From assembly GCA_964608715.1 (NCBI GenBank), contig CAZSPH010000002.1:6545-51240 (forward strand): 44,696 bases of DNA, given 5' to 3'. A program made the position numbers and the translations under genes. Origin of the DNA: an uncultured Gemmatimonadaceae bacterium (GTDB lineage Bacteria; Gemmatimonadota; Gemmatimonadetes; Gemmatimonadales; GWC2-71-9). The notes below the pieces were generated by a model. The model was not told the DNA's origin. It did not search any database and was given only the letters and a program-made list of their open reading frames with translations. This document shows, piece by piece, positions 9,486 through 27,427 of the stretch (positions are counted from its first letter, which is position 1; every line of letters starts with the position of its first letter).

Positions 9486-9486
9486 A

Positions 9487-12714: not shown

Positions 12715-13094
12715 CCAAGGAACAACTGAAGCACCTCGAAGGACGACTTATCGAGGAGCGTGGCCGCGTCATGAAGGAACTCGGATACTACGGAGAGGCA
12801 TTCAACGCCTCGCTGCAGTCCTCCGACGGCGATCTGTCATCGTATTCGTACCACATGGCTGATCAGGGTACCGATGCGATGGAGCGCGAGAAGCAGTTCC
12901 TGATGGCCTCCAAGGAAGGGCGCTACCTCTGGCACCTCAACGAGGCACTCCGGCGGCTGTACAACGCTCCGAACAACTTCGGCAAGTGCCACCAGTGCGG
13001 CACCGTGATCGACTTCGAGCGGCTCGACGCACTGCCGCATGCCAGACTCTGCATCTCCTGCAAGGAGAAGGAAGAGGATGGCAAGCGGCGTTGA
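12711..13094 (+). CDS. DksA/TraR-family C4 zinc-finger protein
   Basis: C-terminal CHQCGTVIDFERLDALPHARLCISC four-cysteine finger preceded by a coiled-coil region. GTGA overlap with ileS. Confidence 0.85.
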   Translation: MTKEQLKHLEGRLIEERGRVMKELGYYGEAFNASLQSSDGDLSSYSYHMADQGTDAMEREKQFLMASKEGRYLWHLNEALRRLYNAPNNFGKCHQCGTVIDFERLDALPHARLCISCKEKEEDGKRR

Positions 13095-13578
13095 TCGCCG
13101 GTTCTTCATCGCGATGATGGGCGGGGTGGTCCTGATCGACAGGATTACCAAGGTCTTCTTCGAGCGGTGGCTGATGACGACCGGGCCGGTCTCGGTGATC
13201 GGAGAGTTCTTCCACTGGCGGCTGGTCTACAACCGCGGTGCGGCCTTCGGGATGGGGGCCTCCAGCGACCTTTCCCGCTGGATCCTCTTCGTGATCGCGA
13301 TCATTGCGGTGGTCATCCTCTACCGGATGAATCGCGAATCGGAGCCGGGTGACCGGCTGCGACAGCTCTCGCTCGGCGCAATCGCCGGCGGAGCGGCCGG
13401 CAACATGATCGACCGGATCGTATCCCCTCCCGGGGTGGTCGACTTCATCGACTTCGATTTCGGTTTCTACCACTTTCCGACCTTCAACGTCGCTGACATC
13501 GCGATCACCTGCGGTGCGGTGGCACTGGGCTGGTCGCTCTGGCGAGAGGAGCGCAGTCGTGCAGCCGTTGCCGGCTGA
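13078..13578 (+). CDS. lspA: lipoprotein signal peptidase (signal peptidase II)
   Basis: Four TM segments, NRGAAFG and FNVADIAITCG (catalytic Asp contexts). ATG 13078 is preceded by GAAGGAAGAGG. Conserved ileS-lspA linkage. Confidence 0.9.
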   Translation: MASGVDRRFFIAMMGGVVLIDRITKVFFERWLMTTGPVSVIGEFFHWRLVYNRGAAFGMGASSDLSRWILFVIAIIAVVILYRMNRESEPGDRLRQLSLGAIAGGAAGNMIDRIVSPPGVVDFIDFDFGFYHFPTFNVADIAITCGAVALGWSLWREERSRAAVAG

Positions 13579-14590
13579 CGACGGCGTCGACACCGGCTGC
13601 TCATTCTCGGTGAGTGCTCCGGTTACGGAGCGGCTCGACCGCTTCCTCGCCGATCAGTTGCAGTGGTCGCGGACCCAGGCCGCCCGCATCGTCGCGGGAA
13701 AGCTGGTTGAAGTCGATGGCAAGGTTGCCCGGGCGTCCCGGACTATGGTTCGCGGTGACCTGGTCACCGTGCGTCCGCTTCCCGAAGCGGCCCCCCGCAG
13801 GCTTCTGCCCCACCATCTGCCGCTCTCGATCATCTACGAAGACGAACATCTGGCAGTGATCGACAAACCGGCCGGTCTGGTGGTGCATCCGGCCCCCGGC
13901 CACTGGAATGACACTCTGGTCAACGCCCTGGTGGCCCGGGGTACCACGCTTTCCGGCGGGGCCGAAGGACGGCCGGGGATTGTCCACCGGCTCGATCAGG
14001 ACACCAGTGGGGCAATGGTGGTTGCCCGCACCGACGAGGCCCATCGGAAGCTCGGAGCGATGCTGGCGGCCCGCCGGATCCATCGCACCTATGCGGCACT
14101 CTCCTGGGGGCATCTCGACGGCCCCCGGGTGATCGAGGCGTCGATCGACCGGCATCCCGTGGACCGCAAGCGGATGGCCATCCGGGAAGATGGCAGAACT
14201 GCCCGGACCGATGTCTTTCCGGCCGCCCGTCTCGGCCCGGTGGACCTGCTCCGCCTGGAACTCCATACCGGCCGCACCCACCAGATCCGGGTGCACCTCG
14301 AATCGATCGGTCATCCCGTGGTCGGTGACCGGGTCTACGGTGGCGGGGGGGCGAGGCGGATTTCCGGCCCCGAGCGGGCGCTGGCGAGGGCAGTCGACGA
14401 TGCCGCACCCAGGCAGGCACTTCACGCGGCCATTCTTGCTTTCCGCCATCCGGTTACCGGCGAGGACATGGTCTTCCGGGCCGCCTGGCCGGCGGACCTC
14501 CTTCCCCTGATGGAGCTGCTGGTGCCATCCGAGACTTTATCGGATCGGGAGGCAGTGCTGAGCAGCCTGGGGTTCCATCGGCGTGACTGA
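13559..14590 (+). CDS. rluD: RluA/RluD-family 23S rRNA pseudouridine synthase
   Basis: S4-like N-terminus (RLDRFLADQL), catalytic HRLDQDTSG, and TGRTHQIRVHL. The start is uncertain (13514 ORF start vs GTG 13559). Confidence 0.9.
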   Translation: MQPLPADDGVDTGCSFSVSAPVTERLDRFLADQLQWSRTQAARIVAGKLVEVDGKVARASRTMVRGDLVTVRPLPEAAPRRLLPHHLPLSIIYEDEHLAVIDKPAGLVVHPAPGHWNDTLVNALVARGTTLSGGAEGRPGIVHRLDQDTSGAMVVARTDEAHRKLGAMLAARRIHRTYAALSWGHLDGPRVIEASIDRHPVDRKRMAIREDGRTARTDVFPAARLGPVDLLRLELHTGRTHQIRVHLESIGHPVVGDRVYGGGGARRISGPERALARAVDDAAPRQALHAAILAFRHPVTGEDMVFRAAWPADLLPLMELLVPSETLSDREAVLSSLGFHRRD

Positions 14591-14945
14591 AGACCAGCTC
14601 TCCGGTGGCGGGTTGATCGCCCGGGCTGGCGGAGTGCGCTGGTTCGTACCGGTTGCCGGCGTCCTGGAGGTTCTCCGGGCGCCGGTCGTAGCCCGTGTTC
14701 CCGGCGCCCCGCCCGCTCTGCTCGGAGTGGTGAATCATCGGGGAAGGGTGCTGCCGGTGGCGGATCCGGTACGCGCGCTCGGGCTCTCCGGAGCCAGCGG
14801 GATCTCGGTCGAGGTGGTGGTCGTGGAGGGTGGCGGCCGCCGGTTCGGCATTGGTGTGGACGGCGTCGTGGAACTTGCTCCGGCCGCTCGCATGGGGCTT
14901 GCAACGATGGACCTCGACGCGGTCGCGGCCGCGATATTCGGTTGA
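14583..14945 (+). CDS. cheW: short CheW-like coupling protein
   Basis: CheW-domain pattern: WFVPVAGVLEVLRAPVVARVPGAPPALLGVVNHRGRVLPVADP ... FGIGVDGVVEL. Only ~120 aa. The GTG overlaps the rluD stop by 8 nt. Confidence 0.75.
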   Translation: MTEDQLSGGGLIARAGGVRWFVPVAGVLEVLRAPVVARVPGAPPALLGVVNHRGRVLPVADPVRALGLSGASGISVEVVVVEGGGRRFGIGVDGVVELAPAARMGLATMDLDAVAAAIFG

Positions 14946-14970
14946 CCGGTATTTCCTGGGAGAGCTGACT

Positions 14971-15336
14971 GTGGCACATCGGATCCTGATCTGTGACGAT
15001 GCGATCTTCATGCGGACGATGATCGCAGACATTCTGACCGGCGCGGGCTACGAGGTCGCCGGCGAGGCCGAGAGCGGCCTCCAAGCGGTCGATCGGTACA
15101 AGGCGCTCAAGCCCGATCTCGTCACGATGGACATCGTGATGCCGGACATGGGCGGCATCGATGCTGTCCGCGCCATCATCGAGATCGACCCGGATGCCCG
15201 GATCCTGATGTGCTCGGCGATGGGCCAGCAGCAGCTGGTGGTCGAGGCGGTGCAGGCCGGTGCGAAGGATTTCGTGGTGAAGCCGTTCCAGGCCACCCGC
15301 GTTCTGGAGGCGGTGAAGCGGGTCCTCGACGGGTGA
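14971..15336 (+). CDS. cheY: single-domain response regulator (CheY-like)
   Basis: ILICDDA (acidic pair), LVTMDIVMPDMGG (phospho-acceptor Asp), CSAMG and VVKPF (Lys). GTG 14971 follows GGGAGAG. The upstream extension to 14830 overlaps cheW and was not used. Confidence 0.92.
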   Translation: MAHRILICDDAIFMRTMIADILTGAGYEVAGEAESGLQAVDRYKALKPDLVTMDIVMPDMGGIDAVRAIIEIDPDARILMCSAMGQQQLVVEAVQAGAKDFVVKPFQATRVLEAVKRVLDG

Positions 15337-16829
15337 CCGACCAGCGGCGGGCGCGTTATCTGGCACTGTTCGCCGCCGAATCGCGGACCCTGCTGGCGGG
15401 CGCCCGCCGCTCGCTGCGTGACTGGGACGATGCCCCGGCAGATCCCGCCAACGGCGACGCCGTCTTCCGGGCATTGCACACCGTCAAGGGAATGGCAGCA
15501 TCGCTGGAGTTCCAGGACCTGGTTGAAGAGATCCACGCAGCCGAGACCGAACTGGCTGAACACCGCAGTGGCGCGTCGCTGGTATCAGCCGATTGGCTGG
15601 TTTCATTCGGCAGGATGCTGGACCGACTCTCGGTTGCAACTGAGAGTGCTGCCGGAACGGTTCCCGATGGCACGACATCGCGACCGGGCGCGACTACTCC
15701 CGTCGTGCGGGTCGACCTCTCCCGGCTCGACGCACTGCTCGACGAACTCGGTGGACTGGTGACTGCCAGGCAGGAGCTGGCCCGCCACGCTGCCGGCGAC
15801 CCCTTCCGTCCGGTTTCCCGTGCCGCGGTAGCGATGACCCGCCGGCTCGATGAGGTCCAGAACCGGATTCTGGACGTCCGCCTCGCTCCTCTCACCGAGA
15901 TCATGGAGCCGGTTCCGCCGATGGCCCGCGAACTGGCACGACACCTCGGCAAGGAGGTCACGGCAGAGATCACCGGTGACGAACTCGAAGTCGACCGGGG
16001 AATTCTTGCCGTTCTCCCTGATGCGATGATTCACCTGGTGCGGAACGCGATCGATCACGGTATCGAACCTCCCGGGGAGCGCCGTGCCGCAGGGAAGGGT
16101 GCGACCGGGCGGATCTCGATCCGGGCCCGACAGGATGGCGAGACGGTGGTCGTGACCATCTCCGATGACGGCCGGGGAATCGACCGGCGACGGGTGGCTG
16201 AAAGGGCGGTTGCTGCCGGGATACTTCAGTCCGGGGCAGAACTGGGCGATAACGATCTTCTGGGAGTACTCGCTCGGCCCGGTTTCTCGACTGCCGCTAC
16301 CGTTTCCGAGGTATCGGGGCGAGGGGTGGGCCTGGACACGGTGGTCGCAGGTCTGCACGGCGTAGGTGCTGCGCTGTCGCTCACCTCGGTGCCGGGACGC
16401 GGGTCGATCTTCACCATCCGGCTTCCGATGCGGGTCGGGATCGTGAAGGCGCTGGTGACGGGGATCGGGCCGGAACGGTACGTGATGCCGCTGACCCAGG
16501 TCAGTGAACTCGTAGCCTGGGATCCGGCCGCCGCACGGGTGGAAGGCGGTCGGACAGTGATGGATCTCCGCGGGGCCGATGTCCCGGTGGTGGATCTGCG
16601 ACGGCTGCTTCTCTTCCGGGGAGCGGCACCGCCGCCGCACCGTCCTGCGGTCGTCTGCGACATGCAGGGGCAGCGGATCGCCCTGATCGCCGACGAGATA
16701 GTCGGCCAGGTGGATGCCGTGGTGCAGGCGTTCGATCGACCTGCCGGACTGCCCCGGTGGGTGGGCGGTGCCACCGTACTCGATGACGGCAGACCGGCGC
16801 TGATGCTCGACCTGGCAGGTGTGATGTGA
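15333..16829 (+). CDS. cheA: CheA-type histidine kinase lacking a P2 domain (~498 aa)
   Basis: HPt motif FRALHTVKGMA, P3 (VRVDLSRLDALLDELGGLV), HATPase boxes HLVRNAIDHGIE / DDGRGID / GRGVGLD, and a C-terminal CheW-like P5. GTG 15333 overlaps the cheY stop (GTGA). Only ~25 aa link HPt to P3. Confidence 0.92.
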   Translation: MTDQRRARYLALFAAESRTLLAGARRSLRDWDDAPADPANGDAVFRALHTVKGMAASLEFQDLVEEIHAAETELAEHRSGASLVSADWLVSFGRMLDRLSVATESAAGTVPDGTTSRPGATTPVVRVDLSRLDALLDELGGLVTARQELARHAAGDPFRPVSRAAVAMTRRLDEVQNRILDVRLAPLTEIMEPVPPMARELARHLGKEVTAEITGDELEVDRGILAVLPDAMIHLVRNAIDHGIEPPGERRAAGKGATGRISIRARQDGETVVVTISDDGRGIDRRRVAERAVAAGILQSGAELGDNDLLGVLARPGFSTAATVSEVSGRGVGLDTVVAGLHGVGAALSLTSVPGRGSIFTIRLPMRVGIVKALVTGIGPERYVMPLTQVSELVAWDPAAARVEGGRTVMDLRGADVPVVDLRRLLLFRGAAPPPHRPAVVCDMQGQRIALIADEIVGQVDAVVQAFDRPAGLPRWVGGATVLDDGRPALMLDLAGVM

Positions 16830-16854
16830 CGCAAGAGAGAAAGGAGTTCTGCTC

Positions 16855-17481
16855 GTGACTGCTGTACTGAACGACCTCGATACGCTGAGACGCGATGGCC
16901 TGCGGGAGGTGGCCACGATTGGCGCCGGACATGCGGCCACCGCTCTCTCCCAGCTCACCGACCGGCGGATCATGATCTCGGTTCCGCAGGTGCGCCAGCT
17001 CGATTCCCGCTCGCTCCCGACAATGCTCTCCGGCTTCGGCGATCACGTCGCAGTCGTCAGCATGCGGATGCTGGGCGACCTCACCGGCCGGGCACTGCTG
17101 GTATTCAGCGAGCAGGATGCGGTGCGACTCTGTGATCTGATCCTCCGCCGTGTCCCCGGCCCGGTCAGGGCCCTGGGTGATCTCGAGCAGTCGGGGCTCA
17201 AGGAAGTGGGTAACATCGTCTGCTCCGCCTACCTCACCGCGCTCAGCAACTTCATGGGAATGATGCTCCTGCCGTCGGTTCCCGGACTGATGATCGGGCC
17301 GACCGGTCCGGCGGTGGAAAGCAGCCTGGATCCGGCCGACACCCCGGGCAACCTCGTCTTCTGTGTCGACACCGCGTTCCGGACTGACGGTGTTCCGGCG
17401 CAGCCGTTGACCGGAGCATTCCTGCTGATGCCGGACCGCGCATCGATCAGGGCAATCCTCGAGGCGATCAGGCTCGACTGA
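16855..17481 (+). CDS. cheC: CheC-family CheY-P phosphatase
   Basis: Two copies of the D/S-x3-E-x2-N-x22-P signature. The first is DGLREVAT..x22..P (Asn replaced by Thr). The second, SGLKEVGN..x22..P, is canonical. Confidence 0.85.
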   Translation: MTAVLNDLDTLRRDGLREVATIGAGHAATALSQLTDRRIMISVPQVRQLDSRSLPTMLSGFGDHVAVVSMRMLGDLTGRALLVFSEQDAVRLCDLILRRVPGPVRALGDLEQSGLKEVGNIVCSAYLTALSNFMGMMLLPSVPGLMIGPTGPAVESSLDPADTPGNLVFCVDTAFRTDGVPAQPLTGAFLLMPDRASIRAILEAIRLD

Positions 17482-17482
17482 G

Positions 17483-18619
17483 ATGGCCGACCGGGATGCC
17501 CTGGTCGGCGCACTTGCGGGTCGCTGTGATCCGGAACATGCCGCCACCCAGACCGGACTGGCCTGGTACGCCGGACGTCACGGTCACCAGCGCGTGGCAC
17601 TTGCTGCAGCGCGTGCTGCGGTCGCCGCAGCCGATCCTCCGGCGGCCGCCTGGACTGCGCTGGAGGCGCTGACCGCCGGCAGAACCGACCGTCTGGTACT
17701 TCCTGCGGACAGCGACACTGCTGCATCCGATCCCGAACCCCGCATTGCAGTCGCCGCCGGCGTCGAAGCTCACCGCCACGACGCATGGGTCGTGGCCGAG
17801 CTGTGCTACCGTGCCGCCATCGGCGACGACTGCTGCCGGGCCGCGGCAACTGCCAACCTGATGGCGCTCCACGAGCAGCGAGGTGAGGCGGCCCCCGCAG
17901 ATCGACTCTGGGAGACCGTCGCCGCTTCTCCCGGGTGGCATGCCCTTCACAATCGCGCTCTGGCCCTGGCGCGCCGGGGCAACGTCGGCGCTGCCAGAAG
18001 ACTGCTGGCCGGCCACCGCGATCCGGTGGTTGCCCACGCCGAACTCCTGTTCCTGGTCGGCTACCTGGCGCTGCTCGAAGGTGATGCCGCGGCCGGCCGT
18101 GTCGCGCTGGAGGCGGCGCTCTCCCGTGACGGGGCGCTTGCCAGGGCGCTGTTCGCGCTGGGCATCGCCTGCGATCAGCTCGACCGCCCGGGAGATGCCA
18201 TCAGCTCGATCCGCCGTGCTCTGGTCTCCTCACCATGGTTCGCTCCACAGGTATGGCTGCTGGCATTGCCGGATGGTGACGGCTGCGTCGAACAGCCTGC
18301 CTCGATCGTCGAGGGTGGAGTGGACGGTCCGACCGATCAGATTCTGCTGGCACTCGGACGGTCGCTGCTCTTCACCGGGCAGCAGGTGGAGGCGCTGGCG
18401 GTCTTCGACCAGGTGCTGCTGCGCAATCCCGATCATCCGGTCGCCCGGTATCACCGCGGGGTGGTACTCGCCAAGCTGCGCCGCTACGACGAGGCTCTGG
18501 GTGACTGGCAGCGGGTACGCGATGCCCTGCCGGGCGATGCGGAGCTGGCAGCGCTCGCTGCCCGCAGCGCGGCCTCGGCGGGACGGCTCGCCGAACTCTT
18601 CGCCGGTCCGGAGCGGTGA
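17483..18619 (+). CDS. TPR-repeat protein
   Basis: Ala/Leu-rich helical repeats with TPR-like periodicity (e.g. ALAVFDQVLLRNPDHPVARYHRGVVLAKLRRYDEALGDWQRV). The start lies 1 nt after the cheC stop. Confidence 0.7.
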   Translation: MADRDALVGALAGRCDPEHAATQTGLAWYAGRHGHQRVALAAARAAVAAADPPAAAWTALEALTAGRTDRLVLPADSDTAASDPEPRIAVAAGVEAHRHDAWVVAELCYRAAIGDDCCRAAATANLMALHEQRGEAAPADRLWETVAASPGWHALHNRALALARRGNVGAARRLLAGHRDPVVAHAELLFLVGYLALLEGDAAAGRVALEAALSRDGALARALFALGIACDQLDRPGDAISSIRRALVSSPWFAPQVWLLALPDGDGCVEQPASIVEGGVDGPTDQILLALGRSLLFTGQQVEALAVFDQVLLRNPDHPVARYHRGVVLAKLRRYDEALGDWQRVRDALPGDAELAALAARSAASAGRLAELFAGPER

Positions 18620-19527
18620 TGCACGGGCCTCTGCACGAGATAGGACTGGTCGAGGTCCTCCAGTTGCTGGAACGGGGAAGGCGCTCCGGTCGTCTCGTCG
18701 TAGTCGGTGGCCGTCACGACGAGCATCGAACGGTGGCGATCGACCGTGGCAGGATCGTCGATCTCCGCCCGCTCACCGAGGCGGATCTGCTGCTCCACCT
18801 CGCGATCCGGGCACTGGTACCTGCAGGGACGGTCCGTGCCTCTCCGGAACTGATGGCGATGGCGCGATGCGAGGTTGCAACCGCCGTTCTGCTGGACATG
18901 CTGACCTGGTCGGTCGGCCGGTTCGATTTCACGGCCGGCGAGGTTGAAGCCGGGCCACTGGACATCACTCCTTCGGGACTGATGATGCAACTGGTGGCAG
19001 GCGAATCGGCCCGGACCGAAACGGCTGAGGCTGTGGGCAGTTTTGCCGCGGTACCTCGTTTTGCTTCCGTCGCGGAGATTGCGGGCGGTACACCACTGAT
19101 GCTGGACAATCTCGACTGGCGGATTCTCGACCGGATCGATGGTCGTCGCGATATCGCCGCGCTCGCCCGTGAACTCATGGAGCCGGTCGAGTCGGTCGCC
19201 CGGCGGTCACTGCGGCTTGCTGCTGCCGCTATAATTCATCTCGACATGCCTGCCGGCGATTCCGTTGCCAGGGCCAGAGCGGTGCTCGATCAGGGCGATG
19301 CCGTGGCGGCCATCGGGATCCTGGCGGAACGGGTGGCTGCAGCCCCGGAGGATGGAGAGGCTTGGCGATGGCTCGGCTTTGCCGAATTGCGGATGGGCAG
19401 GATCGATCGGGCATCCGCTGCGTGGCGGGCCTGGGTGAACGCTTCCCCGGTCCACCATTTCGAAGCAGCGCCGCTGCTCGCCGCCGCCGAAACGATGATG
19501 GAAGCACTGCGAGGAGCCGGTGACTGA
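18616..19527 (+). CDS. DUF4388/PATAN-type N-domain protein with C-terminal TPR-like region
   Basis: N-terminus GPLHEIGLVEVLQLLERGRRSGRLVV ... GRFDFTAGE matches the DUF4388 pattern. Mid-region NLDWRILDRIDGRRDIAALAREL looks like a small winged-helix-like segment. GTGATG overlap with the upstream gene. Confidence 0.7.
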   Translation: MMHGPLHEIGLVEVLQLLERGRRSGRLVVVGGRHDEHRTVAIDRGRIVDLRPLTEADLLLHLAIRALVPAGTVRASPELMAMARCEVATAVLLDMLTWSVGRFDFTAGEVEAGPLDITPSGLMMQLVAGESARTETAEAVGSFAAVPRFASVAEIAGGTPLMLDNLDWRILDRIDGRRDIAALARELMEPVESVARRSLRLAAAAIIHLDMPAGDSVARARAVLDQGDAVAAIGILAERVAAAPEDGEAWRWLGFAELRMGRIDRASAAWRAWVNASPVHHFEAAPLLAAAETMMEALRGAGD

Positions 19528-20275
19528 TATCGCAGGTCCGTTGTCCGGCGCTGATCCGGAACCCGCCTTCCTGGAGCTGGGAGAGCGACTCCGTCAGCGC
19601 GGCCAGCTCGAGGCCGCGCTCAGCGTGGCGATTGCCGGAGTCACCCGCCACCCGCAGCTTGCCGCCGCTCACGATCTGGTCGGAAGGGTACGCGCCGATC
19701 AGGGCGACGATGCCAGTGCGCGCCAGGCCTGGCTTGCCGCGCTCGAATGCGAATCCGGTCATCCCGGCGCCCTCAAGGGACTCGCCTTTCTCGCCTTCCG
19801 CAATCACGACCTCGCCGAGGCTGAGCGACGCCTGGAGCAGGCGGTCCGCAGCAGTCCGGGGGATGCGGGAGTGGTCGGCGCACTCGATCGTGTCAGGGCA
19901 GCCCGGAATGCGGACAACGAAGTGGTCCGGATCGAGGATGGTGCCCACGGACTTCTGCTGGTCGATCGTGACGGATACCGACTCGTGGGAGATGCCAGGC
20001 TCGACCACGAAGACGATCGGTCGCCCGACCTTCTGGCCGCCGATGCGGCAGCGGCGGCCCGCGAAGCTGTCCGGCTCTCGCGGCTGCTGGAACTGGGAGA
20101 ATGGCAGTCGCTGGTGGTAGAGAGTCGACGGCAGCGGGCCGCAGTGGTACCGGTACGGCACGATGCGACACTGCTGCTCAGGCGCTCGCCGCTCGCCCCG
20201 GTCGGGCGGCTGATGGCGGTGGCCCGCCGCGCCGCCGTGGTCGCGGGCGAATGGATCGATCGGAACGTCGCATGA
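19520..20275 (+). CDS. TPR (N-terminal) - Roadblock/LC7 (C-terminal) fusion protein
   Basis: N-terminal TPR-like helices (RQRGQLEAALSVAIAGVTRHPQLAAAHDLVGRV...). The C-terminal ~110 aa show a Roadblock pattern (GLLLVDRDGYRLVG ... AAAAAREAVRLSRLLELGEWQSLVVESRRQRAAVVPV). Confidence 0.65.
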   Translation: MTDIAGPLSGADPEPAFLELGERLRQRGQLEAALSVAIAGVTRHPQLAAAHDLVGRVRADQGDDASARQAWLAALECESGHPGALKGLAFLAFRNHDLAEAERRLEQAVRSSPGDAGVVGALDRVRAARNADNEVVRIEDGAHGLLLVDRDGYRLVGDARLDHEDDRSPDLLAADAAAAAREAVRLSRLLELGEWQSLVVESRRQRAAVVPVRHDATLLLRRSPLAPVGRLMAVARRAAVVAGEWIDRNVA

Positions 20276-20610
20276 ACGGATGGTTGCCCAGACTCCGGAG
20301 CGCTGCCGGTGTGGCCGGAGTGCGCGCCGTCTTTCTCGTCTCCTCCGATGACGGCCTGATGGTGCAGGAGGTTTCCCGTGACGAGGCGGACGTCGCCGCC
20401 GCCGCTGCACTGGTCGCATCGCTGGTGCGTCGCTCTGCGACGCTCGCAGGCGACCCTCCCGATACCATCACCCTGGCCGCTACTTCAGGCACCGTGATCG
20501 CCGTCGACGCGGGGGACTCGCTCTGGCTGGCAGCCCTGGCCGCGCCGGGAGCCGAACTGGGGCGGCTGCGTCTGGTGCTCGGCGATCTCGCTGCCGGGAT
20601 CGACCGGTGA
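20272..20610 (+). CDS. Roadblock/LC7 domain protein (MglC/MglB-paralog-like, 112 aa)
   Basis: VAGVRAVFLVSSDDGLMVQEV ... AAAAALVASLVRRSATLAG ... ITLAATSGTVIAVDAGDSLWLAALA. ATGA overlap with the upstream gene. Confidence 0.7.
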   Translation: MNGWLPRLRSAAGVAGVRAVFLVSSDDGLMVQEVSRDEADVAAAAALVASLVRRSATLAGDPPDTITLAATSGTVIAVDAGDSLWLAALAAPGAELGRLRLVLGDLAAGIDR

Positions 20611-21071
20611 GAGTACTGCACGACTGGCTCGCCGCGCCGCTCGACGAACTGGTGCGCGAAACCGGTGCGCGCTTCGCACTGGTCACCGGCAGTTTCGGGC
20701 AGGTGATCGGACAGCACGGCTTCACCCGATCGCTCGACGTGATGGCTGCAGCATCGCTCGCGGCCGGCATCGTTGCCACCACGCGCGAAGTCGGCAGCAT
20801 GGTGGGATCCCCGGGAGGATTCGGAGCCATCGCTCATCAGGGCATCGGCCACGGCGTCTGGCTGGAACCCATCAGGTCGCCGCACGGTGACTGGATTCTC
20901 CTGGTCGCCTTCGGTGAGGAATCGACCGTCGGACTGGTCCGTCTCTTCTCGGAGCGATTCGTCCGGGCCATCTCGGCAGTGGGACCTCGTGGCGACAGCA
21001 GGGAACTCCTGGCCGAAGGGTTCGAGCGGGAACTGGACGCTTCTCTGCGTGCACTTTTCGAGGGCAACTGA
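20607..21071 (+). CDS. mglB: MglB-like Roadblock/LC7 protein (putative GTPase-activating partner)
   Basis: Aligns without large gaps to my recollection of M. xanthus MglB: FALVTGSFGQVIGQHG..LDVMAAASLAAGIVATTREVGSMVG...HQG..HGVWLEPI...ILLVAFGEESTVGLVRLFSERF...ELDASLRALF. Lies directly upstream of the MglA-like gene, as in mglBA. Confidence 0.75.
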   Translation: MRVLHDWLAAPLDELVRETGARFALVTGSFGQVIGQHGFTRSLDVMAAASLAAGIVATTREVGSMVGSPGGFGAIAHQGIGHGVWLEPIRSPHGDWILLVAFGEESTVGLVRLFSERFVRAISAVGPRGDSRELLAEGFERELDASLRALFEGN

Positions 21072-21072
21072 A

Positions 21073-21672
21073 GTGGCCCGGGTCGATCACGGAGAAGGGA
21101 AGCTCTCGGCGACGCTGCTGGTGGTCGGATGTCGGGCCAGTGGCCGCAGCATGATGATGGAGGCTGTCAGGCGGCGCGTCTCCGCGCACCGGATCGTCGG
21201 CGGTGGTTCCGGTGATGACGCACCATTCGACTGGCTGGTGCTGGATCTCGGTCGGGTGGGTGGCTGGCAGGTTGCCGTCCGGCTGGTTGCCGTGCCGTCG
21301 CTGGCCGCGCAGTCCGACGTGCGCCGGACGTTGATCGGCGAAGCGGATGGAATCGTTCTGATTGTCGACTCGCTCGCGGGCCGGATAGACGACAATCTCG
21401 AGACCATCCGGCAGCTCCAGGAGGATCTGATCGCCGGCGGCGTCGACCCGCGCGAGATCCCGCAGGTCTACCTCTATTCCAAGCAGGACCTTCCCGGGGA
21501 TCTGATACTGCCGGTGGAGGCGCTCGACGCGACGCTGAATTTCCGCAGCGTTCCGAGTCGCGGCGGCGATCTGCTCCGGGGTACCGGTGTGGTGGAATCG
21601 GTACAGCGACTCGTCTCCATGGTAATGGGCCGGCACGCGACGACTCCCTCCCCGGACGGGTCGCAATGCTGA
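21073..21672 (+). CDS. MglA-like Ras-superfamily small GTPase fold with degenerate G1/G2/G3/G4 motifs (probable pseudo-GTPase)
   Basis: Collinear with MglA: LLVVGCRASGRS (vs VYYGPGLCGKT), PFDWLVL (vs FFDFLPL), AVPSL (vs TVPGQ), GIVLIVDS (vs GVVFVADS), YSKQDLP (vs YNKRDLP). GTG 21073 lies 1 nt after the mglB-like stop. Confidence 0.7.
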   Translation: MARVDHGEGKLSATLLVVGCRASGRSMMMEAVRRRVSAHRIVGGGSGDDAPFDWLVLDLGRVGGWQVAVRLVAVPSLAAQSDVRRTLIGEADGIVLIVDSLAGRIDDNLETIRQLQEDLIAGGVDPREIPQVYLYSKQDLPGDLILPVEALDATLNFRSVPSRGGDLLRGTGVVESVQRLVSMVMGRHATTPSPDGSQC

Positions 21673-23621
21673 ATGCCCACGCCACCTTCGATGCCTTCGT
21701 GGTCGGTTCGTCCAACCGGCTCGCGGTCACCGCATCGAAGGCCGTCGCCGAATCCCCCGGTGCTGCCTACAATCCGCTCTTCATCTACGCCCGTCCGGGA
21801 CTCGGCAAGACTCATCTCCTGATGGCGATCGGCCACGAGGCCAGGCGCGTCGATCAGGGGCGCACGATCGAGTATGTGACGGTGGACGACTTCGTCGAGG
21901 CCTACCAGGCAGCTCTCGCTGCCGGACAGGCCGAAGCCTACCGCCGGCGCTTCATCGGGGCGGATCTGGTGCTGATAGATGACGCCCAGTTGCTTGCCGA
22001 TCGGCGCGAACTTCAGTCCGAGCTGCTCCGCCTGATCGATCAGCTCATGGCTGCCGATCGACAGATAGTACTCGCCGGCGACCGGCCGCCCGAGGAAATC
22101 CAGCAGCTCGATGAACGGCTGATCCGGCGTTTCGGCGGCGGTCTGGTGATCGACATCGCTGCTCCCGACTACGAGACCAGGCTTGCCATTCTCGGTCGGC
22201 GGGCACGCGACCGGCATATCGATCTTCCGGCCGAGACGCTGGCCATGGTTGCGGAACTGCCGATCGGGACCGTGCGTGAACTGATCGGAGCGCTCAACCG
22301 GCTGGCTGCGCAGCAGGCCGTGCAGACCGAACGACTCGAGGTCGGGCAGGCGCGTCGTCTGCTCGAGGCGCTCGGTCACCGGGTTCCCGAGCAGAATGCC
22401 GGGAAGGTGCGTGCTGAAGCAGTGGCAGTGCCCGAAGTGACAGTGGAGCGGGATGAGTTCGGCGATTTCCTGAGTGATCTCACCGCCTCGGTTGCCCGCA
22501 GAGTCGACAGCTGGCGCCAGCGCATAACCGAGGCCTCGCTCCGCTGGTCGGCGGAGGGATTCAGGACCGGGCGACTCGATGCCGCACTGAGTGGCGATCT
22601 TCCCGATGATCCCGAGGAGATCCTGCAGGGATTCGAGCGGGATGTCGCGGCGCTGCGCGGCCTGCAGCAGGAACTCGCGGTGGCGGCACCGGAGCTTCTC
22701 TCCGAGGCACTGCTGTACGATCCCGATCGCCTGGCCAATGCGATCGAACTGGTTGCGGATGCGCGTGAGGCCGGAGCACCACCTCCCGGGCCGTCGCCCC
22801 GGTATCATCTCGACAGCTTTTCGGTGGGCGCCTCCACCCGATCGGCAGTCGCGGCAATCCACGCTGCCGCCGCTGCACCCGGCAGTCGCTACAATCCGGT
22901 GGTTCTGGTCGGCAGGAGTGGCGAAGGAAAGACCCACCTCCTTCACGCCTTCGGCCTGGCACTGCAGGAGCAGGGCCTCCGCCGCGTTGCGGTGATGGAT
23001 GGACGGACCTTCGTGGCCGATCTGGTGACCGCACTGGGCGACGGTACGGTAACCAGATGGCGGCATCGGCTGCGCCGGGTCGATGCCCTGCTGATCGACG
23101 ATGTCGACTCCCTCGCAGGCAAGGATCGCAGCCAGGAGGAACTGTACCTCCTCTACAACATCCTGGTCGAGTCGGGACGTCAGATGGCCTTCACCTGTTC
23201 GGTGCCGCCGGCCCAGCAGGCAGGACTCGAACCTCGTCTGGCCACCAGACTGGGCGCTGGTCTGGTCGTTTCGCTGGGCCCCCCGGATCGCGAGGCGCGG
23301 ATCACCGAGGTCGAGCGGTTGCTGGGAGATGCTGCACTCGATCCCGAACTGGTCGACTACCTGGCAGGGCGGCCCGCTGCGTCGATCCGCGAACTGCAGC
23401 AGCTCGTCAACCGCGTTGCCGCTGCCGCCGATGAACGGGGACTCCCTCTCTCGCTTGCTGTGGCTCGCCGGATACTCGAAGGGGCCACCGTTGCGGATCA
23501 GAGACCGCCCCGTCGCGGCAGCGGACTGGTCGCTCCGGGTGGCGGAGCACTCAGATCACGTGAGAAGATGATCGAGACCTGGCCCACTCCATCCGAACGG
23601 CTGATCGGGGAGTGGCGCTGA
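21666..23621 (+). CDS. tandem double DnaA/Hda-type AAA+ ATPase, no DnaA domain I/II or domain IV
   Basis: Module 1 (aa ~5-235): FDAFVVGSSNRLA, Walker A RPGLGKTHL, Walker B LVLIDDAQ, RLIRRFGGGL, TVRELIGALNRL. Module 2 (aa ~390-610): LDSFSVGASTRSA, GRSGEGKTHL, ALLIDDVDSLAGKDRSQEEL, RLATRLGAGL, SIRELQQLVNRV. A ~150-aa linker separates them, and no HTH-like C-terminus is seen. Confidence 0.8.
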   Translation: MLNAHATFDAFVVGSSNRLAVTASKAVAESPGAAYNPLFIYARPGLGKTHLLMAIGHEARRVDQGRTIEYVTVDDFVEAYQAALAAGQAEAYRRRFIGADLVLIDDAQLLADRRELQSELLRLIDQLMAADRQIVLAGDRPPEEIQQLDERLIRRFGGGLVIDIAAPDYETRLAILGRRARDRHIDLPAETLAMVAELPIGTVRELIGALNRLAAQQAVQTERLEVGQARRLLEALGHRVPEQNAGKVRAEAVAVPEVTVERDEFGDFLSDLTASVARRVDSWRQRITEASLRWSAEGFRTGRLDAALSGDLPDDPEEILQGFERDVAALRGLQQELAVAAPELLSEALLYDPDRLANAIELVADAREAGAPPPGPSPRYHLDSFSVGASTRSAVAAIHAAAAAPGSRYNPVVLVGRSGEGKTHLLHAFGLALQEQGLRRVAVMDGRTFVADLVTALGDGTVTRWRHRLRRVDALLIDDVDSLAGKDRSQEELYLLYNILVESGRQMAFTCSVPPAQQAGLEPRLATRLGAGLVVSLGPPDREARITEVERLLGDAALDPELVDYLAGRPAASIRELQQLVNRVAAAADERGLPLSLAVARRILEGATVADQRPPRRGSGLVAPGGGALRSREKMIETWPTPSERLIGEWR

Positions 23622-25237
23622 TGGCGATCAAGGGATCACTCCGTGAAGCATCACTTGCCGATGTAGTCCAGCTTCTGTTCCTCGGTCGCCGTACCGGCTG
23701 TCTGGCGGTGGCGGGTGATCGCAATTTCGGATCGATCTGGTTCGACGACGGCTGGATCGTTTTCGCCGGACTCGTCTCCCGCCAGGATCGACTCGGTGAG
23801 CGTCTGGTGTCGGCAGGGCGGCTGAACCGCAGCCAGCTCGAACAGGCCATTGCCGCGCAGCAGGCCGTTCCCGGCCGCAAGCTTGGTGCAGTGCTCCGCC
23901 AGCTCGACCTTCTGACGTCGACCGAACTCGATGCCGAGATCACCAGGCAGGTCGAGGAGACGATCTTCACTCTCTTCACCTGGACCGCGGGGACGTTCTC
24001 GTTCGAAGCTGACGTTCTTCCGGACGACCCCGAAGTGACGGTGAGGCTGAACCCTGAGGGACTGCTCCTCGAAGGTGCACGACGGGTCGACGAATGGAGC
24101 GTCATCGCGAAGAAGATCCCTTCGCTCGATGCCGTGTTCGCAATCGAAGGAGACGAGCGCAAGACCGGCGAGGCGCTCGGTCTGGTCGAAATGGAGCTGG
24201 CAGTATTTCCGCTGATCGACGGTCGCCGCACCGCGCGCGAGATTCAGGAGATCTGCGGCCTCACCGAATTCGAGATCAGCAGGGTGCTGTACGGACTCCT
24301 GTCGGCGGGACGGATCAGGCGGACTGCCACGGTCTCCCGGCAACAGGTACCCGGGGACGAAACCCGTCTGGCCGAACATCGCAATCTCGGCATTGCGTTC
24401 TATCGCAGCGGGATGCTGGGTGAGGCCGAGCGAGAGTTCCGTCGGGTCGCAGAGATCAGACCTCAGGATGCCGAGGCTCACTATCATCTCGGTTGCATAG
24501 CAGTGCAGTCGGGCCGCGCCGAAGCTGCGATCGATTCCTTCGAGTCGGCAGTCGTCGCCGGCGGGAGGAAGCCGGTGGTACTGCATGACCTGGCACTGGC
24601 GCTGGAAGTAGCGGGGCGCCTCGACGACGCGGCAGTGGTGCTGGCTGAAGCTGCCGAAGCGGGTCGCGGCGACCATCGGATCTGGATGGACTGGGGCCTC
24701 CTGGCACTGAGACGCAATGAGAGCAGCATTGCGCTCGACCGGCTGGCCCGTGCCCGCGAACTGATCGGAGATGGCGCTGCACCTGCCCGCTGGTACTGGG
24801 GCTGCGCCTGGGCCCAGGCATTGGGGGAGGCGTGGACCGATGCCGTTGCCACTGCCCGCGAGGGAGTCGCCGCACATCCCGCTCACGCCGTGCTCAGGTC
24901 CACTCTCGGCGTGCTGCTGGAGGCCACCGGAGAAGTGGGCGAAGCGGAGGCGCAACTGCGACACGCGCTGGGCGAGGACCCCACCATTCCGCAGATCAGC
25001 AAGAATCTGGGTGACCTGTTCTATCGCGCGGCGCGCTGGGACGAGGCCGAAGAGTCCTATCAGCGGACGGCGGCGCTGGCCCCCGATCTCGGCGACGATC
25101 TCTACTTCCGGCTCGGCAATCTCGCCTGCCGCCGGGGGGACCTGGCTGCGGCCCGTTCACACTGGGAGCGGGCCCTCACGATCAATCCTGAGCACGCACT
25201 CGCGCGTGCCAACCTCGCCGGGGCGGGGGGGCAATGA
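23612..25237 (+). CDS. DUF4388/PATAN-type N-domain + winged-helix-like segment + multi-TPR protein
   Basis: IKGSLREASLADVVQLLFLGRRTGCLAV ... GTFSFEAD (DUF4388 pattern), VFPLIDGRRTAREIQEICGLTEFEISRVLYGLLSAGRI, then >=6 TPR-like repeats. An alternative ATG lies at 23621 (TGATG overlap). Confidence 0.75.
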   Translation: MALMAIKGSLREASLADVVQLLFLGRRTGCLAVAGDRNFGSIWFDDGWIVFAGLVSRQDRLGERLVSAGRLNRSQLEQAIAAQQAVPGRKLGAVLRQLDLLTSTELDAEITRQVEETIFTLFTWTAGTFSFEADVLPDDPEVTVRLNPEGLLLEGARRVDEWSVIAKKIPSLDAVFAIEGDERKTGEALGLVEMELAVFPLIDGRRTAREIQEICGLTEFEISRVLYGLLSAGRIRRTATVSRQQVPGDETRLAEHRNLGIAFYRSGMLGEAEREFRRVAEIRPQDAEAHYHLGCIAVQSGRAEAAIDSFESAVVAGGRKPVVLHDLALALEVAGRLDDAAVVLAEAAEAGRGDHRIWMDWGLLALRRNESSIALDRLARARELIGDGAAPARWYWGCAWAQALGEAWTDAVATAREGVAAHPAHAVLRSTLGVLLEATGEVGEAEAQLRHALGEDPTIPQISKNLGDLFYRAARWDEAEESYQRTAALAPDLGDDLYFRLGNLACRRGDLAAARSHWERALTINPEHALARANLAGAGGQ

Positions 25238-26073
25238 AGATCGGAATCGAGCGGTTCGTCGCCGAGCACCGTCGACTGGTGGATCGCCTGGCCGGTCCGC
25301 TGCCACCGGAGGAACGGCAGGCGGTACGGCAGGAGATCATCGCACTCTTCCGTTCCACCGAGCAGGCAATCGAAGAACTGACCGGGTTCAAGGAAACGAT
25401 CCGCGATCTGGTCGAACGGTTCAAGGCCCTGCCGGATGAAGCCGCTGCCACGGCTTCCGTGGTGCATGATCATCTCGGTGCATCCACGATGCTGGAGCAG
25501 GGCTGGAGTGCGCTGGCCCGCGGCGAGTGGTCGGAGGCCGAGCGGCTGCTGGAGCAGGCGTTGCGGCTCGATCCGCATGCTCCGAATACCGAGGCACTGC
25601 TGGGCTGGGCGCTGATGCATCAGGGCAGGGGAGACGATGCGCTGCAGCACTGTCTCAGTGTTCTGCTCCGGGACCCCGGGAACGGTCTGGCCCGCACCGC
25701 AGTGGGAGCGATCTGCCTGCAGAAGGGAATCGCGGGGGAGGCGATCGAGCACCTCACCAGGGTGGTCCGGCACGGCGGCGATCCCAGAGCCGGGTTGTAT
25801 GCCCAGTACTGGCTGGGTGTCGCCTATCTCGAGCGCGATATGCCGCGTGATGCCATCGATGCGCTGCAGCGCGCGGTGTCCTCCGGCCCCAACCTCGCCG
25901 AGGCCTGGGCGGAACTCGGACGGGCGCTCTGGCGTTCCGGTCTGCATGAAGAGGCACGAACCGCCTGGAATCGGGGCAGTGCCATCCGCTTCTCGCCCTT
26001 TGCCGAACGGTCACGCGAGCTGCTCCAGATGACCGAGGCCGGAAGGATACCGCCACGCTCGCCACTTTCCTGA
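25234..26073 (+). CDS. coiled-coil + TPR-repeat protein
   Basis: TPR-like repeats (EAERLLEQALRLDPHAPNTEALLGWALMHQGRGDDALQHCLSVLLRDPGN...). ATGA overlap with the upstream gene. Confidence 0.7.
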   Translation: MKIGIERFVAEHRRLVDRLAGPLPPEERQAVRQEIIALFRSTEQAIEELTGFKETIRDLVERFKALPDEAAATASVVHDHLGASTMLEQGWSALARGEWSEAERLLEQALRLDPHAPNTEALLGWALMHQGRGDDALQHCLSVLLRDPGNGLARTAVGAICLQKGIAGEAIEHLTRVVRHGGDPRAGLYAQYWLGVAYLERDMPRDAIDALQRAVSSGPNLAEAWAELGRALWRSGLHEEARTAWNRGSAIRFSPFAERSRELLQMTEAGRIPPRSPLS

Positions 26074-26126
26074 TCCTGCTCGCCCAGCTCGGTGGTCCTC
26101 CCACCGATCGTCCGGTTCCTTTCGAC

Positions 26127-27008: not shown

Positions 27009-27072
27009 CAACCCCACGCAGAGGGGCTGTTCAGCTTGACCGATGGCCATCGGGGCGCTAGCCTGTACTCCC

Positions 27073-27264: not shown

Positions 27265-27268
27265 TCCC

Positions 27269-27342: not shown

Positions 27343-27427
27343 CTGGTGTGCCGAATTGGAATGAGGGAGTGCACGTGACGCTCCGTTCCCCGTCATAACA
27401 GGGGAGAACCGTTTTGGAGGTAACGAG

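Follow-up and report, generated by a model that had tools for sequence, protein, structure and literature searches.

We analysed a 44,696-nucleotide (nt) stretch of DNA from an uncultured Gemmatimonadaceae bacterium (assembly GCA_964608715.1, contig CAZSPH010000002.1, positions 6,545 to 51,240; hereafter the window, by whose numbering coordinates are given), in which thirteen consecutive genes (14583-26073) encode Che-type chemosensory proteins, PATAN (DUF4388) and tetratricopeptide repeat (TPR) proteins, three Roadblock proteins, an MglA-like protein and a tandem DnaA-like ATPase that we call DnaA2. Together they form a chemosensory and MglA-type polarity module whose effector is new and invariant and whose inputs are newly combined; it occurs in Gemmatimonadota and in a few relatives labelled Cloacimonetes. 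An earlier note on this DNA had read the thirteen genes as a single signalling module. Re-checking the open reading frames (ORFs) reproduced its 13 genes and all 12 junctions to the nucleotide, and nearly all of its domain calls were upheld by Pfam and NCBIfam. From cheW to the last TPR gene (TPR2), the junctions measure +25, -4, +25, +1, -4, -8, -4, -4, +1, -7, -10 and -4 nt, where positive values are gaps and negative values overlaps. All 13 ORFs are open, with a coding-type G+C content at third codon positions (0.69-0.87). Three starts, those of cheA (15333), Rbl2 (20272) and the MglA-like gene (21073), are internal to longer ORFs and are backed by orthologous gene calls of equal length in a related locus (L003). 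All genes of the 44.7-kb window, those of the module included, lie on the + strand.

We used DnaA2 as the anchor for comparing loci. A scan of one genome per species yielded 184 genomes with a DnaA2 relative, and we compared the best 80 of these, placing the window proteins and those of a divergent locus on them by tblastn and counting each gene only in loci whose fetched DNA spans its position. All 80 are Gemmatimonadota. DnaA2 relatives formed more than 120 clusters at 54-86% identity; every organism name was of the form Gemmatimonad*, and the database names were "DnaA/Hda family protein" or "chromosomal replication initiator". Gene order was kept in 80 of 80 genomes, with presence of about 100% per gene, in two architectures. 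The genes are conserved in synteny and co-inherited rather than scattered across related genomes, in line with the single module that the earlier note had suggested.

The first architecture, type A, comprises 30 loci, including those of the window's clade (DnaA2 identity 63-72%), and runs dksA-lspA-rluD-cheW-cheY-cheA-cheC-TPR1-PATAN1-TPR-Rbl-Rbl2-Rbl3-MglA-like-DnaA2-PATAN-TPR-TPR2-peptidase. Each gene was present in every locus that could be scored (24/24 to 30/30), with the exception of Rbl2 (26/27). The second, type B, comprises 50 loci (DnaA2 identity 46-53%) and runs rluD-cheY-cheA-cheC-big TPR-PATAN-TPR-Rbl-Rbl-MglB-like-MglA-DnaA2-PATAN-TPR-cheR-cheD-cheB-cheW-cheW-TPR-peptidase, its CheA carrying a P2 domain and its big TPR protein measuring about 890 amino acids (aa). 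Nearly all of these genes were found in all type B loci, the exceptions being TPR1 (33/39), one of the downstream CheW genes (36/40) and a cheW at the start of the module, which was present in 24/24 type A loci and in 8/34 of type B. Compared with type B, the window lacks cheR, cheD, cheB and two cheW genes, its CheA lacks P2 and its MglA has decayed; in addition, its big TPR protein is cut to the C-terminal third and its upstream PATAN protein lacks the helical insertion. The window locus is a streamlined, partly degenerate version of the module, and type A is probably a single clade. The description of the Che core as "orphan" therefore holds for the streamlined type A lineage and fails for the commoner architecture, which adds CheR, CheD, CheB and two CheW proteins.

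The most distinctive member of the module is DnaA2 (21666-23621), a 651-aa tandem DnaA-type AAA+ ATPase in which the Pfam family Bac_DnaA matched twice (8e-89). An AlphaFold2 (AF2) model, with a predicted local distance difference score (pLDDT) of 83.8, places an AAA+ module at residues 1-235, a disordered linker, a helical domain at about 265-370, a second AAA+ module at about 375-605, a disordered stretch and a conserved tail; the predicted template-modelling score (pTM) of the full-length model was 0.48, and the packing of the two AAA+ modules was not read from it. The N-terminal module superposed on domain III of Bacillus subtilis DnaA (8BV3) with a root-mean-square deviation of 1.6 A over 235 residues (Foldseek, AF2 model). 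A DnaA2 profile matched the same PDB entry at 1.6e-64, and its C-terminal half matched Hda at about 1e-8. The N-terminal module is 38-41% identical to domain III of Escherichia coli and B. subtilis DnaA; the C-terminal module, 34% identical to the same domain, is nearer Hda by sequence. The middle helical domain had no match in Pfam and no fold match in the PDB (Foldseek with a separate model, pLDDT 89.8). We had considered this domain as MshEN-like and dropped the idea, as neither search found a known fold.

We next mapped functional residues of E. coli DnaA onto DnaA2, having checked the residue numbers against the E. coli sequence. In E. coli DnaA, V211 is the H-motif residue and R245 the B-motif residue (both for binding single-stranded DNA, ssDNA), R227 is AID-1, L290 is AID-2 and R281/R285 are the arginine finger. 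Both modules keep Walker A, Walker B, the box VII arginines R281/R285, L290 and the sensor II arginine R334 (E. coli numbering). In the N-terminal module, K48, D105/D106, D139, R151/R155 and R204 correspond to E. coli K178, D235/D236, D269, R281/R285 and R334; sensor I is kept, and the H-motif (V211 to Q81), the B-motif (R245 to E115) and AID-1 (R227 to I97) are lost. The C-terminal module keeps all three of the latter (V211 as V454, R245 as R488 and R227 as R470) and has a serine at sensor I. In an alignment of 53 DnaA2 sequences R470 and R488 are invariant and V454 nearly so. The losses in the two modules are complementary, and by its sequence DnaA2 resembles an initiator-clade AAA+ protein that is active and forms oligomers.

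Pfam detected neither DnaA domain I (DnaA_N) nor domain IV (Bac_DnaA_C) in DnaA2. The match to TIGR00362 covers model positions 104-339 of 437 and exceeds the cut-off only because two copies add up, and the true DnaA proteins that were found carry PF08299 and PF11638. The clamp-binding motif of Hda is of the type QL[SD]LF, and no such motif is visible at the N-terminus of DnaA2 (MLNAHATFDAF). Because it lacks domain I, domain IV and a visible clamp-binding motif, DnaA2 is neither DnaA nor Hda. We regard it as the conserved hub and probable output of the module, derived from DnaA domain III. At the C-terminus (23510-23621), a disordered stretch is followed by a conserved RSREKMIETWP..ERLxEEW-COOH, a tail that is retained even in a 30%-identical Cloacimonetes-type protein (KKLITDWPAMEDLLEMEY). 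This acidic-aromatic tail could plausibly be a peptide ligand for a TPR protein.

The resemblance to DnaA raises an alternative along the lines of the earlier note, namely control of replication or of the cell cycle. DnaA2 would co-oligomerise with DnaA or bind ssDNA at the origin, and would cap, poison or stimulate the DnaA filament, such that chemosensory, cyclic di-GMP (c-di-GMP) and polarity signals gate the initiation of replication. The close fit of the N-terminal module to DnaA domain III in sequence and structure speaks for this scenario, as do its sensor I, R281/R285, AID-2 L290 and sensor II R334, and the ssDNA-binding residues V454 and R488 and AID-1 R470 of the C-terminal module. 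The chromosomal setting can be cited too: in Gemmatimonadales the module sits between yggS/ileS and the dcw cluster, and one distant locus (L086) has divIVA upstream. In addition, PatA is reported to interact with the divisome in Anabaena (PMC7380572), and surface sensing through pili and c-di-GMP reportedly triggers cell-cycle initiation in Caulobacter (PMC7196804). Nevertheless, we consider replication control unlikely, if still a live rival. DnaA2 has no domain IV with which to bind DnaA boxes, no domain I and no visible Hda-type clamp-binding motif, and its N-terminal module has lost the H-motif, B-motif and AID-1 residues (Q81, E115 and I97). Moreover, the companion families (Che, MglA/MglB, PATAN, MshEN and TPR) are known from the control of motility and polarity, not of replication, and outside Gemmatimonadales the DnaA2 relatives are not near dcw genes. 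The link to the cell cycle and division that the earlier note had drawn relied only on the likeness to DnaA and on proximity to dcw; with domains I and IV missing and other contexts found outside Gemmatimonadales, it was not supported.

The gene immediately upstream of DnaA2 (21073-21672) encodes the 199-aa MglA-like protein; MglA is a group 1 Ras-like GTPase. The protein itself had no match in Pfam. A profile of the window protein and its orthologues matched the MglA structures 6H17, 5YMX and 3T12 over their full length (4e-57 to 3e-52), and because the profile matches MglA crystal structures at about 1e-57, homology to MglA is certain. Its nucleotide-binding and catalytic motifs are degraded: the P-loop reads GCRASGRS, with the lysine changed to arginine, the switch-I Arg-Thr is missing, and "AVPSL" and SKQD stand in place of "TVPGQ" and NKxD. 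None of the 27 type A orthologues has the switch-I Arg-Thr or the TVPGQ motif with its catalytic glutamine, and the change of the P-loop lysine is an additional loss in the window's own lineage. By contrast, type B MglA reads GPGRSGKT ... DRT ... TVPGQ ... NKQD, with every motif intact in the sequences displayed (8 of 50). The mean pairwise identity of MglA is 84.5% within type B (n=50) versus 50.3% within type A, which together with the motif losses puts a measure on the decay that the earlier note had recognised in calling this protein a degenerate MglA. Owing to the fast evolution of this protein, a word-indexed search retrieved no more than 6 relatives, and we therefore took its orthologues from syntenic loci. 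The type A protein is best described, as far as its sequence can tell, as a retained pseudo-GTPase. Its neighbours have not followed the same course: those compared are conserved in type A as well as or better than in type B, with mean identities (type A versus type B) of 72 versus 62% for DnaA2, 76 versus 62% for Rbl3, 73 versus 68% for PATAN-TPR and 89 versus 93% for CheY.

Three Roadblock genes lead up to the MglA-like gene. The first (19520-20275) encodes a fusion of N-terminal TPRs to a Roadblock domain at residues 140-219 (TPR-Rbl; Pfam Robl_LC7, 1.7e-5) and was found in all loci scored, 27/27 of type A and 45/45 of type B. The second, Rbl2 (20272-20610), is a small Roadblock/LC7 protein whose Robl_LC7 match lies under the Pfam cut-off (E=0.0024); its orthologue in a type B locus (L079) matches at 2e-8. 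The third, Rbl3 (20607-21071), matches the MglB chains of PDB entries 1J3W, 6H5B and 3T1S at 1e-6 to 5e-6 and the NCBIfam MglB model at 2.5e-7, under its cut-off. Rbl3 lies directly upstream of the MglA-like gene and is MglB-like in both sequence and position, with a putative role as a GTPase-activating protein.

DnaA2 is directly followed, in every locus scored (29/29 for type A, 46/46 for type B), by the gene for PATAN-TPR (23612-25237), a 541-aa protein with a PATAN domain (Pfam DUF4388, 6.8e-33) followed by TPRs. Its PATAN domain has a helical insertion at residues ~59-113 (23786-23950) that contains a tandem MshEN-type motif and reads RLGERLVSAGRLNRSQLEQAIAAQ-QAVPGR-KLGAVLRQLDLLTSTELDAEITRQ. 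The motif of the MshEN c-di-GMP receptor consists of two tandem 24-residue stretches, RLGxx(L/V/I)(L/V/I)xxG(L/V/I)(L/V/I)xxxxLxxxLxxQ (PMC5013675). In the window protein the first motif is perfect (RLGERLVSAGRLNRSQLEQAIAAQ) and the second deviates at three positions (K1, R7 and D10); the spacer between the two is 6 residues, versus 5 in MshEN. The strict motif pattern was found in 62/73 PATAN-TPR orthologues adjoining DnaA2, and many orthologues, those of the distant loci L084, L086 and L090 included, have a perfect second motif. The Pfam MshEN model gave no match to the PATAN insertion; homology became visible when a profile of the family was compared with PDB sequences, where it matched the solved MshEN domains of PilF (6F8L, 1.4e-22), MshE (5HTL, 1.2e-10) and PilB (7e-10). 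We predict from the motif that the PATAN-TPR family binds c-di-GMP; the window's copy, with its degenerate second motif, may or may not do so.

Three further proteins of this kind are encoded in the cluster. TPR1 (17483-18619; Pfam TPR families) corresponds to the C-terminal third of a "big TPR" protein that in other lineages measures 820-960 aa: its residues 166-375 matched the C-terminal end of an 895-aa TPR ORF in L079 (tblastn). PATAN1 (18616-19527) has a PATAN domain and a short TPR region (Pfam DUF4388, 5.1e-14; TPR_19), and no MshEN motif was found in it. Neither PATAN protein of the window matched Response_reg, and both carry TPR repeats. TPR2 (25234-26073; 279 aa, Pfam TPR families) is the last gene of the described cluster; it is present in 29/29 type A loci, and its type B orthologue sits after cheR-cheD-cheB-cheW-cheW.

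We then examined more distant relatives. An exhaustive HMMER search of 1.84 billion representatives retrieved full-length DnaA2 relatives down to about 33% identity. One distant locus (L084, DnaA2 34%) occupies the same chromosomal position and has the full TPR/PATAN/Rbl/MglA/DnaA2/PATAN-TPR/TPR/peptidase block along with cheY and cheC, without cheA or cheW. In a second (L090), the block is followed by cheR-cheB-cheW. A third (L086) is reduced to a Roadblock-like gene, DnaA2, PATAN-TPR and the peptidase gene, with an NtrC-like regulator also there and divIVA upstream. The DnaA2 of this last locus (P0191, 10001-12694, 897 aa) has lost Walker A (KDGHGARG) and Walker B of the second module and has a C-terminal extension of about 350 aa. 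Two loci at an unrelated chromosomal position (L085 and L088, the latter labelled Candidatus Cloacimonetes bacterium 4572_55) read cheW-cheY-cheA-AAA_22-cheW-cheC-big TPR-PATAN-DnaA2, with no Roadblock and no MglA; their DnaA2 is colinear with that of the window over the full length, including the middle domain and the C-terminal tail. The AAA_22/STAND-like P-loop protein of these two loci (272 aa; 4035-4853 in L085 and 3743-4561 in L088) is encoded between cheA and a gene for a long CheW-like protein (310-344 aa), and the Gemmatimonadota loci have no equivalent of it. Finally, in a Gemmatimonadetes metagenome-assembled genome (L089) a big TPR gene adjoins DnaA2, and Che and PATAN genes are absent from the vicinity. 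This genome has two bactofilin genes (3765-4667) some 5 kb upstream of DnaA2, which may be coincidental; bactofilins are polar scaffolds in Myxococcus. The sole constant across the distant loci is DnaA2 beside TPR and/or PATAN proteins. Because DnaA2 persists with these partners while CheA, MglA and the Roadblocks drop out, we consider DnaA2 to be the hub. The earlier note had brought up neither this invariant core nor the MshEN-type motif of PATAN-TPR.

Fusion proteins bear on DnaA-type AAA+ modules as signalling outputs. A member of the DnaA2 family (P0206; L092, 9249-12939), 38% identical over 535 residues, has two DnaA modules and a C-terminal REC domain. Its gene is followed by one for an Hpt-REC-Hpt-REC protein and is preceded, on the opposite strand, by genes for a PAS hybrid histidine kinase and a REC-HD-GYP protein. 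In another genome (L087, GCA_030620115.1, 4309-15923), three proteins of 983, 398 and 1990 aa fuse MshEN to one or two DnaA-type AAA+ modules, and they lie, together with one MshEN-only protein, between pilD and pilB-pilT-pilC-pilS/pilR. A protein of 1876 aa (P0212) has the same architecture as these MshEN and DnaA-III fusions. We considered the 1990-aa protein as a member of the DnaA2 family and rejected it, its similarity being confined to the AAA+ cores (37% identity). P0270 and P0271 combine a single DnaA-type AAA+ module with a C-terminal DUF835 and about 280-290 unassigned N-terminal residues, a further non-initiator architecture of DnaA domain III. These fusions show that DnaA-type AAA+ modules have been connected to phosphorelay and c-di-GMP signalling, in one case within a pilus locus, and the independent fusions to REC and to MshEN suggest that such modules were repeatedly recruited as signalling outputs. 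One can go further and regard tandem DnaA-III ATPases as an unrecognised class of signal output under the control of c-di-GMP, phosphorylation and MglA/Roadblock proteins, which in Gemmatimonadota would co-assemble with DnaA or origin ssDNA and so gate replication by behaviour; we hold this combined proposal to be improbable.

The Che genes at the start of the module encode CheW, CheY, CheA and CheC. CheW (14583-14945) is a 120-aa CheW-like adaptor with a GTG start (Pfam CheW, 4.8e-17) that matches the first ~90 of 138 profile positions. CheY (14971-15336) is a single-domain response regulator (Pfam Response_reg, 1.2e-28) that aligns with Thermotoga maritima CheY (1TMY) at 9e-50. All of its phosphorylation residues are present: the acidic pocket DD, the phospho-Asp in "TMDIVMP", the serine in "CSAMG" and the lysine in "KPF". 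It is the most conserved gene of the module, with a mean identity of 89% within type A and 78% between the types. CheA (15333-16829) is a histidine kinase of P1(Hpt)-P3-P4-P5 architecture (Pfam Hpt, H-kinase_dim, HATPase_c and CheW) that aligns with T. maritima CheA (1B3Q/3JA6) at 7e-65; the N, G1, F and G2 boxes are kept and the Hpt motif "HTVKG" is there. The P2 domain is missing from the window CheA and found in type B orthologues. CheA and CheY look catalytically competent. CheC (16855-17481) is a phosphatase of the type that acts on phosphorylated CheY (Pfam CheC, 1.2e-15; NCBIfam CheC_Thtogales, 2.8e-36, under the family cut-off). Among the window genes scanned (8793-29182 plus selected flanking ORFs), none had an MCPsignal, CheR or CheB domain; type B loci have CheR, CheD and CheB and no methyl-accepting chemotaxis protein (MCP). 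In two type B loci, L079 (1472-3255) and L058, CheA is split into P1-P2 and P3-P4-P5 ORFs. We rejected this split as a family feature, with CheA continuous in 28/30 type B loci; in the other 2/30 it is probably a frameshift or an assembly error.

That the Che genes belong with the rest of the module is open to challenge. A flagellar che operon (cheW-cheY-cheA-cheC) could simply lie next to a separate Mgl/PATAN/DnaA2 operon, the two being independent neighbours with no cross-signalling. A CheY of the T. maritima type and a Thermotogales-type CheC fit this picture, and flagellar che operons commonly lack an MCP gene, as this cluster does. Cultured Gemmatimonas carry a single polar flagellum, and in them a cheA gene is induced along with the flagellar genes (PMC9862903). 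The entire region, moreover, is co-directional and tightly packed, unrelated housekeeping genes included. However, type B loci carry the Mgl/DnaA2 block within the che set: cheC precedes it and cheR follows it, and stop and start codons overlap at either border, with overlaps of 4 nt at PATAN-TPR/cheR and at cheW/TPR. The Cloacimonetes-labelled relatives independently join cheW-cheY-cheA-cheW-cheC to a big TPR, a PATAN and a DnaA2 gene elsewhere, CheY and CheC remain with the block where CheA is lost (L084), and a DnaA2-REC fusion exists. In the face of these arrangements, a chance adjacency of two operons is a doubtful explanation.

The tight packing extends upstream of cheW. The pseudouridine synthase gene rluD (13514-14590; Pfam PseudoU_synth_2 and S4), a neighbour outside the module, overlaps cheW by 8 nt in the window, versus a 17-nt gap in L003, and ileS and dksA overlap by 4 nt. 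Because the upstream genes are equally packed and the rluD ORF overlaps cheW, the 5' limit of the transcription unit is undefined by sequence; given this overlap the unit may start further upstream than cheW, and the 13-gene boundary is functional rather than physical. The upstream housekeeping genes are tilS, ftsH, folP, yggS, ileS, a dksA-like gene, lspA and rluD. At 12711-14590 the longest dksA and lspA ORFs overlap by 56 nt and those of lspA and rluD by 65 nt, and for this reason the true starts of these genes are probably internal. A scan of 9000-28000 for consensus promoters and terminators returned 1 promoter-like and 7 terminator-like sites, no excess over shuffled sequence, and was uninformative on the limits of the unit.

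Downstream, a 53-nt gap after TPR2 separates the cluster from a Peptidase_MA_2 metallopeptidase gene (26127-27008; Pfam, 1.4e-13) whose product has a HELAH motif and a C-terminal transmembrane helix, without a signal peptide. Among Gemmatimonadota loci in which the region was checked, this gene comes after the module in all of those scored for type A (28/28) and type B (34/34) and in L084, L086 and L090, and is missing in L089; it may be a fourteenth, functional member of the module. It is followed by tRNA-Val, a TPR gene, tRNA-Asp and rsmH (29339), from which the dcw cluster extends to ftsZ. The start of rsmH lies 3.3 kb downstream of the thirteen genes, which agrees with the ~3 kb that the earlier note had given for the distance to dcw. 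Within 27074-27343, a small ORF with a hydrophobic product of about 63 aa precedes tRNA-Val(TAC) (27269-27343), and tRNA-Asp(GTC) (29232-29305) stands directly before rsmH. No mraZ was detectable upstream of rsmH; the ORF at 28753-29241 has no Pfam match and overlaps the TPR3 gene.

The same surroundings bear on the idea that the cluster is a conflict or anti-phage system based on an NTPase, in which an AAA+/STAND-like ATPase would work with TPR sensors and a small GTPase. Weak matches to the Pfam nSTAND and NACHT families occur in the second AAA+ module of DnaA2, and PADLOC returned one weak match (mad8, 3.3e-10; no matched stretch passes alone). Among the ten module proteins run against PADLOC, however, the other block genes matched no defence model. 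Across 80 genomes the block shows vertical inheritance at one and the same housekeeping position. It has a uniform G+C content like the rest of the window (64-68%) and contains no mobile-element genes, and its AAA+ modules are specifically DnaA-type. A role in defence is already effectively refuted, and we give it almost no weight.

From gene content and order, conservation, domain identities and the state of the catalytic motifs, all of which were observed directly, we infer protein-protein steps and a target that would run as follows. CheA would autophosphorylate, coupled by CheW to receptors encoded elsewhere, and pass phosphate to CheY, from which CheC would remove it. PATAN-TPR, beside DnaA2, would sense c-di-GMP through its MshEN-type insertion. 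The three Roadblocks, one of them MglB-like, would hold an MglA-type G protein that in most lineages would be a real GTPase switch; in the window's lineage it would have decayed into a catalytically dead subunit, acting as a scaffold or locked in one state. The TPR and PATAN proteins would bring these signals together on DnaA2 and determine its ATP-dependent state of oligomerisation. The DnaA2 assembly would most likely act on type IV pili or on a single polar flagellum, either on their placement at the pole or on their activity. By analogy, such an output would parallel Frz-MglA/MglB-SgmX in Myxococcus and the PilB-binding PATAN regulators of cyanobacteria. Taken as a whole, our leading account, in which we place a little less than even confidence, is a lineage-specific signalling supermodule with DnaA2 as its output and the polarity of a motility organelle as its most likely target.

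Motility polarity is favoured because experiments have tied four kinds of companion to it. MglA and MglB act with the TPR protein SgmX in type IV pilus polarity, and MglA with SgmX is reported to stimulate type IV pili (PMC7519303). A PATAN domain binds the N-terminal domain of PilB1, residues 1-366 (bioRxiv 10.1101/2021.06.11.447907), and PF05157 (GspE_N, now MshEN) is prototypical for a PilB1-type N-terminus. MshEN is a regulatory domain of pilus ATPases (PMC5013675), and MglB and PATAN genes are known neighbours (PMC4316618). The organelle could be a flagellum, since cultured Gemmatimonas have a single polar one.

Several observations weigh against this account. None of the Gemmatimonadota loci fetched has pil, glt or flagellar genes in or beside the cluster. 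The Che part could be the cell's main chemotaxis operon, because its CheY and CheC are of the Thermotoga/Bacillus flagellar-chemotaxis type. DnaA2 retains many DnaA-specific residues that a pure scaffold would not obviously need. The MshEN-DnaA-III fusions of the pilus locus are a parallel recruitment outside the DnaA2 family and so provide a parallel case only. Because type A is probably one clade, the joint loss of cheR, cheD, cheB and MglA catalysis may be one event rather than a correlation. Finally, part of the synteny reflects inheritance and not selection, because most of the conservation lies within one order and the flanking housekeeping genes are syntenic too.

The earlier note knew of no characterisation of this cluster, and we too found no description of the module in the literature. 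No paper was found on the module, on the tandem DnaA-like ATPase or on an MshEN motif inside PATAN, although most subscription journals lay outside the search, so that this absence is no proof. The only trace found is an entry in a supplementary table of Wuichet and Sogaard-Andersen 2015 (PMC4316618), "GAU_1409 PATAN>MglA>-PATAN>" for Gemmatimonas aurantiaca T-27; it probably denotes this locus, in which case the gene left without a name would be DnaA2. That PATAN genes occur close to mglA or mglB was noted by Wuichet and Sogaard-Andersen 2015 and reportedly by Makarova et al. 2006.

The module provides the clearest genomic case so far of a Che-type phosphorelay, predicted c-di-GMP sensing and an MglA/MglB-type switch built into one operon. 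A protein annotated as "DnaA/Hda family" or as an initiator is neither, and is instead an invariant signalling hub across a phylum of abundant soil bacteria. The window's lineage offers a natural experiment, having lost the catalytic residues of the G protein and the adaptation enzymes while the Roadblocks and DnaA2 remain under equal or stronger constraint, and it makes the idea of a bacterial pseudo-GTPase subunit testable. The locus is probably present in cultured Gemmatimonas strains, and experiments are therefore feasible.

Among known systems, Frz, MglA/MglB/MglC and SgmX of Myxococcus xanthus are close to the module: a Che-type phosphorelay is joined in both by an MglA-family G protein, by an MglB-like and further Roadblock proteins (cf. 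MglC) and by large TPR proteins. The known output of the Myxococcus system is the polarity of type IV pili or of the gliding machinery. The Frz-MglA link was worked out genetically from dispersed genes, whereas here all the parts lie in one operon. Unlike in Myxococcus, the cluster has no MCP, no FrzE-type CheA-CheY fusion and no RomR/RomX, the window MglA is predicted to be catalytically dead, and there are two extra invariant partners, namely the tandem DnaA-like ATPase and a PATAN-TPR protein in which an MshEN-type motif is found. Actinobacterial conservons (CvnA-D, or Mfp), which are four-gene units, likewise place a histidine kinase, a Roadblock protein and an MglA-family GTPase in one operon (PMC4316618). 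Their kinase is the membrane protein CvnA, whereas that of the module is a soluble CheA with CheW, CheY and CheC; the module has three Roadblocks and additional PATAN, TPR and DnaA2 proteins, and Pfam detected neither DUF742 (CvnC) nor a membrane HAMP kinase in the cluster.

The remaining parallels concern single components. Like the module, the cyanobacterial Tax/Pix systems with PatA-type (PATAN-REC) proteins pair a Che-like pathway with a PATAN-domain protein, and there PATAN is the output and binds the N-terminus of PilB1. In the module, unlike in Tax/Pix, PATAN is fused to TPRs rather than to REC, CheY is a separate protein, an MshEN-type motif lies inside PATAN and no pilus gene is nearby. 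DnaA2 shares with DnaA and Hda the AAA+ fold of the initiator clade, with Walker A and B, sensor II and the box VII arginines in both modules. It differs from both in joining two modules in one chain with a new helical domain between them, and in being encoded in a signalling operon and not beside dnaN; Hda is a single AAA+ module of about 230 aa with an N-terminal motif for binding the beta clamp, as opposed to the 651 aa and two modules of DnaA2. Finally, PATAN-TPR resembles MshE, PilB and PilF in its tandem 24-residue MshEN-type motifs, the second of which is degenerate in the window's copy, but carries them as a 53-residue module inside PATAN rather than at the N-terminus of a secretion ATPase.

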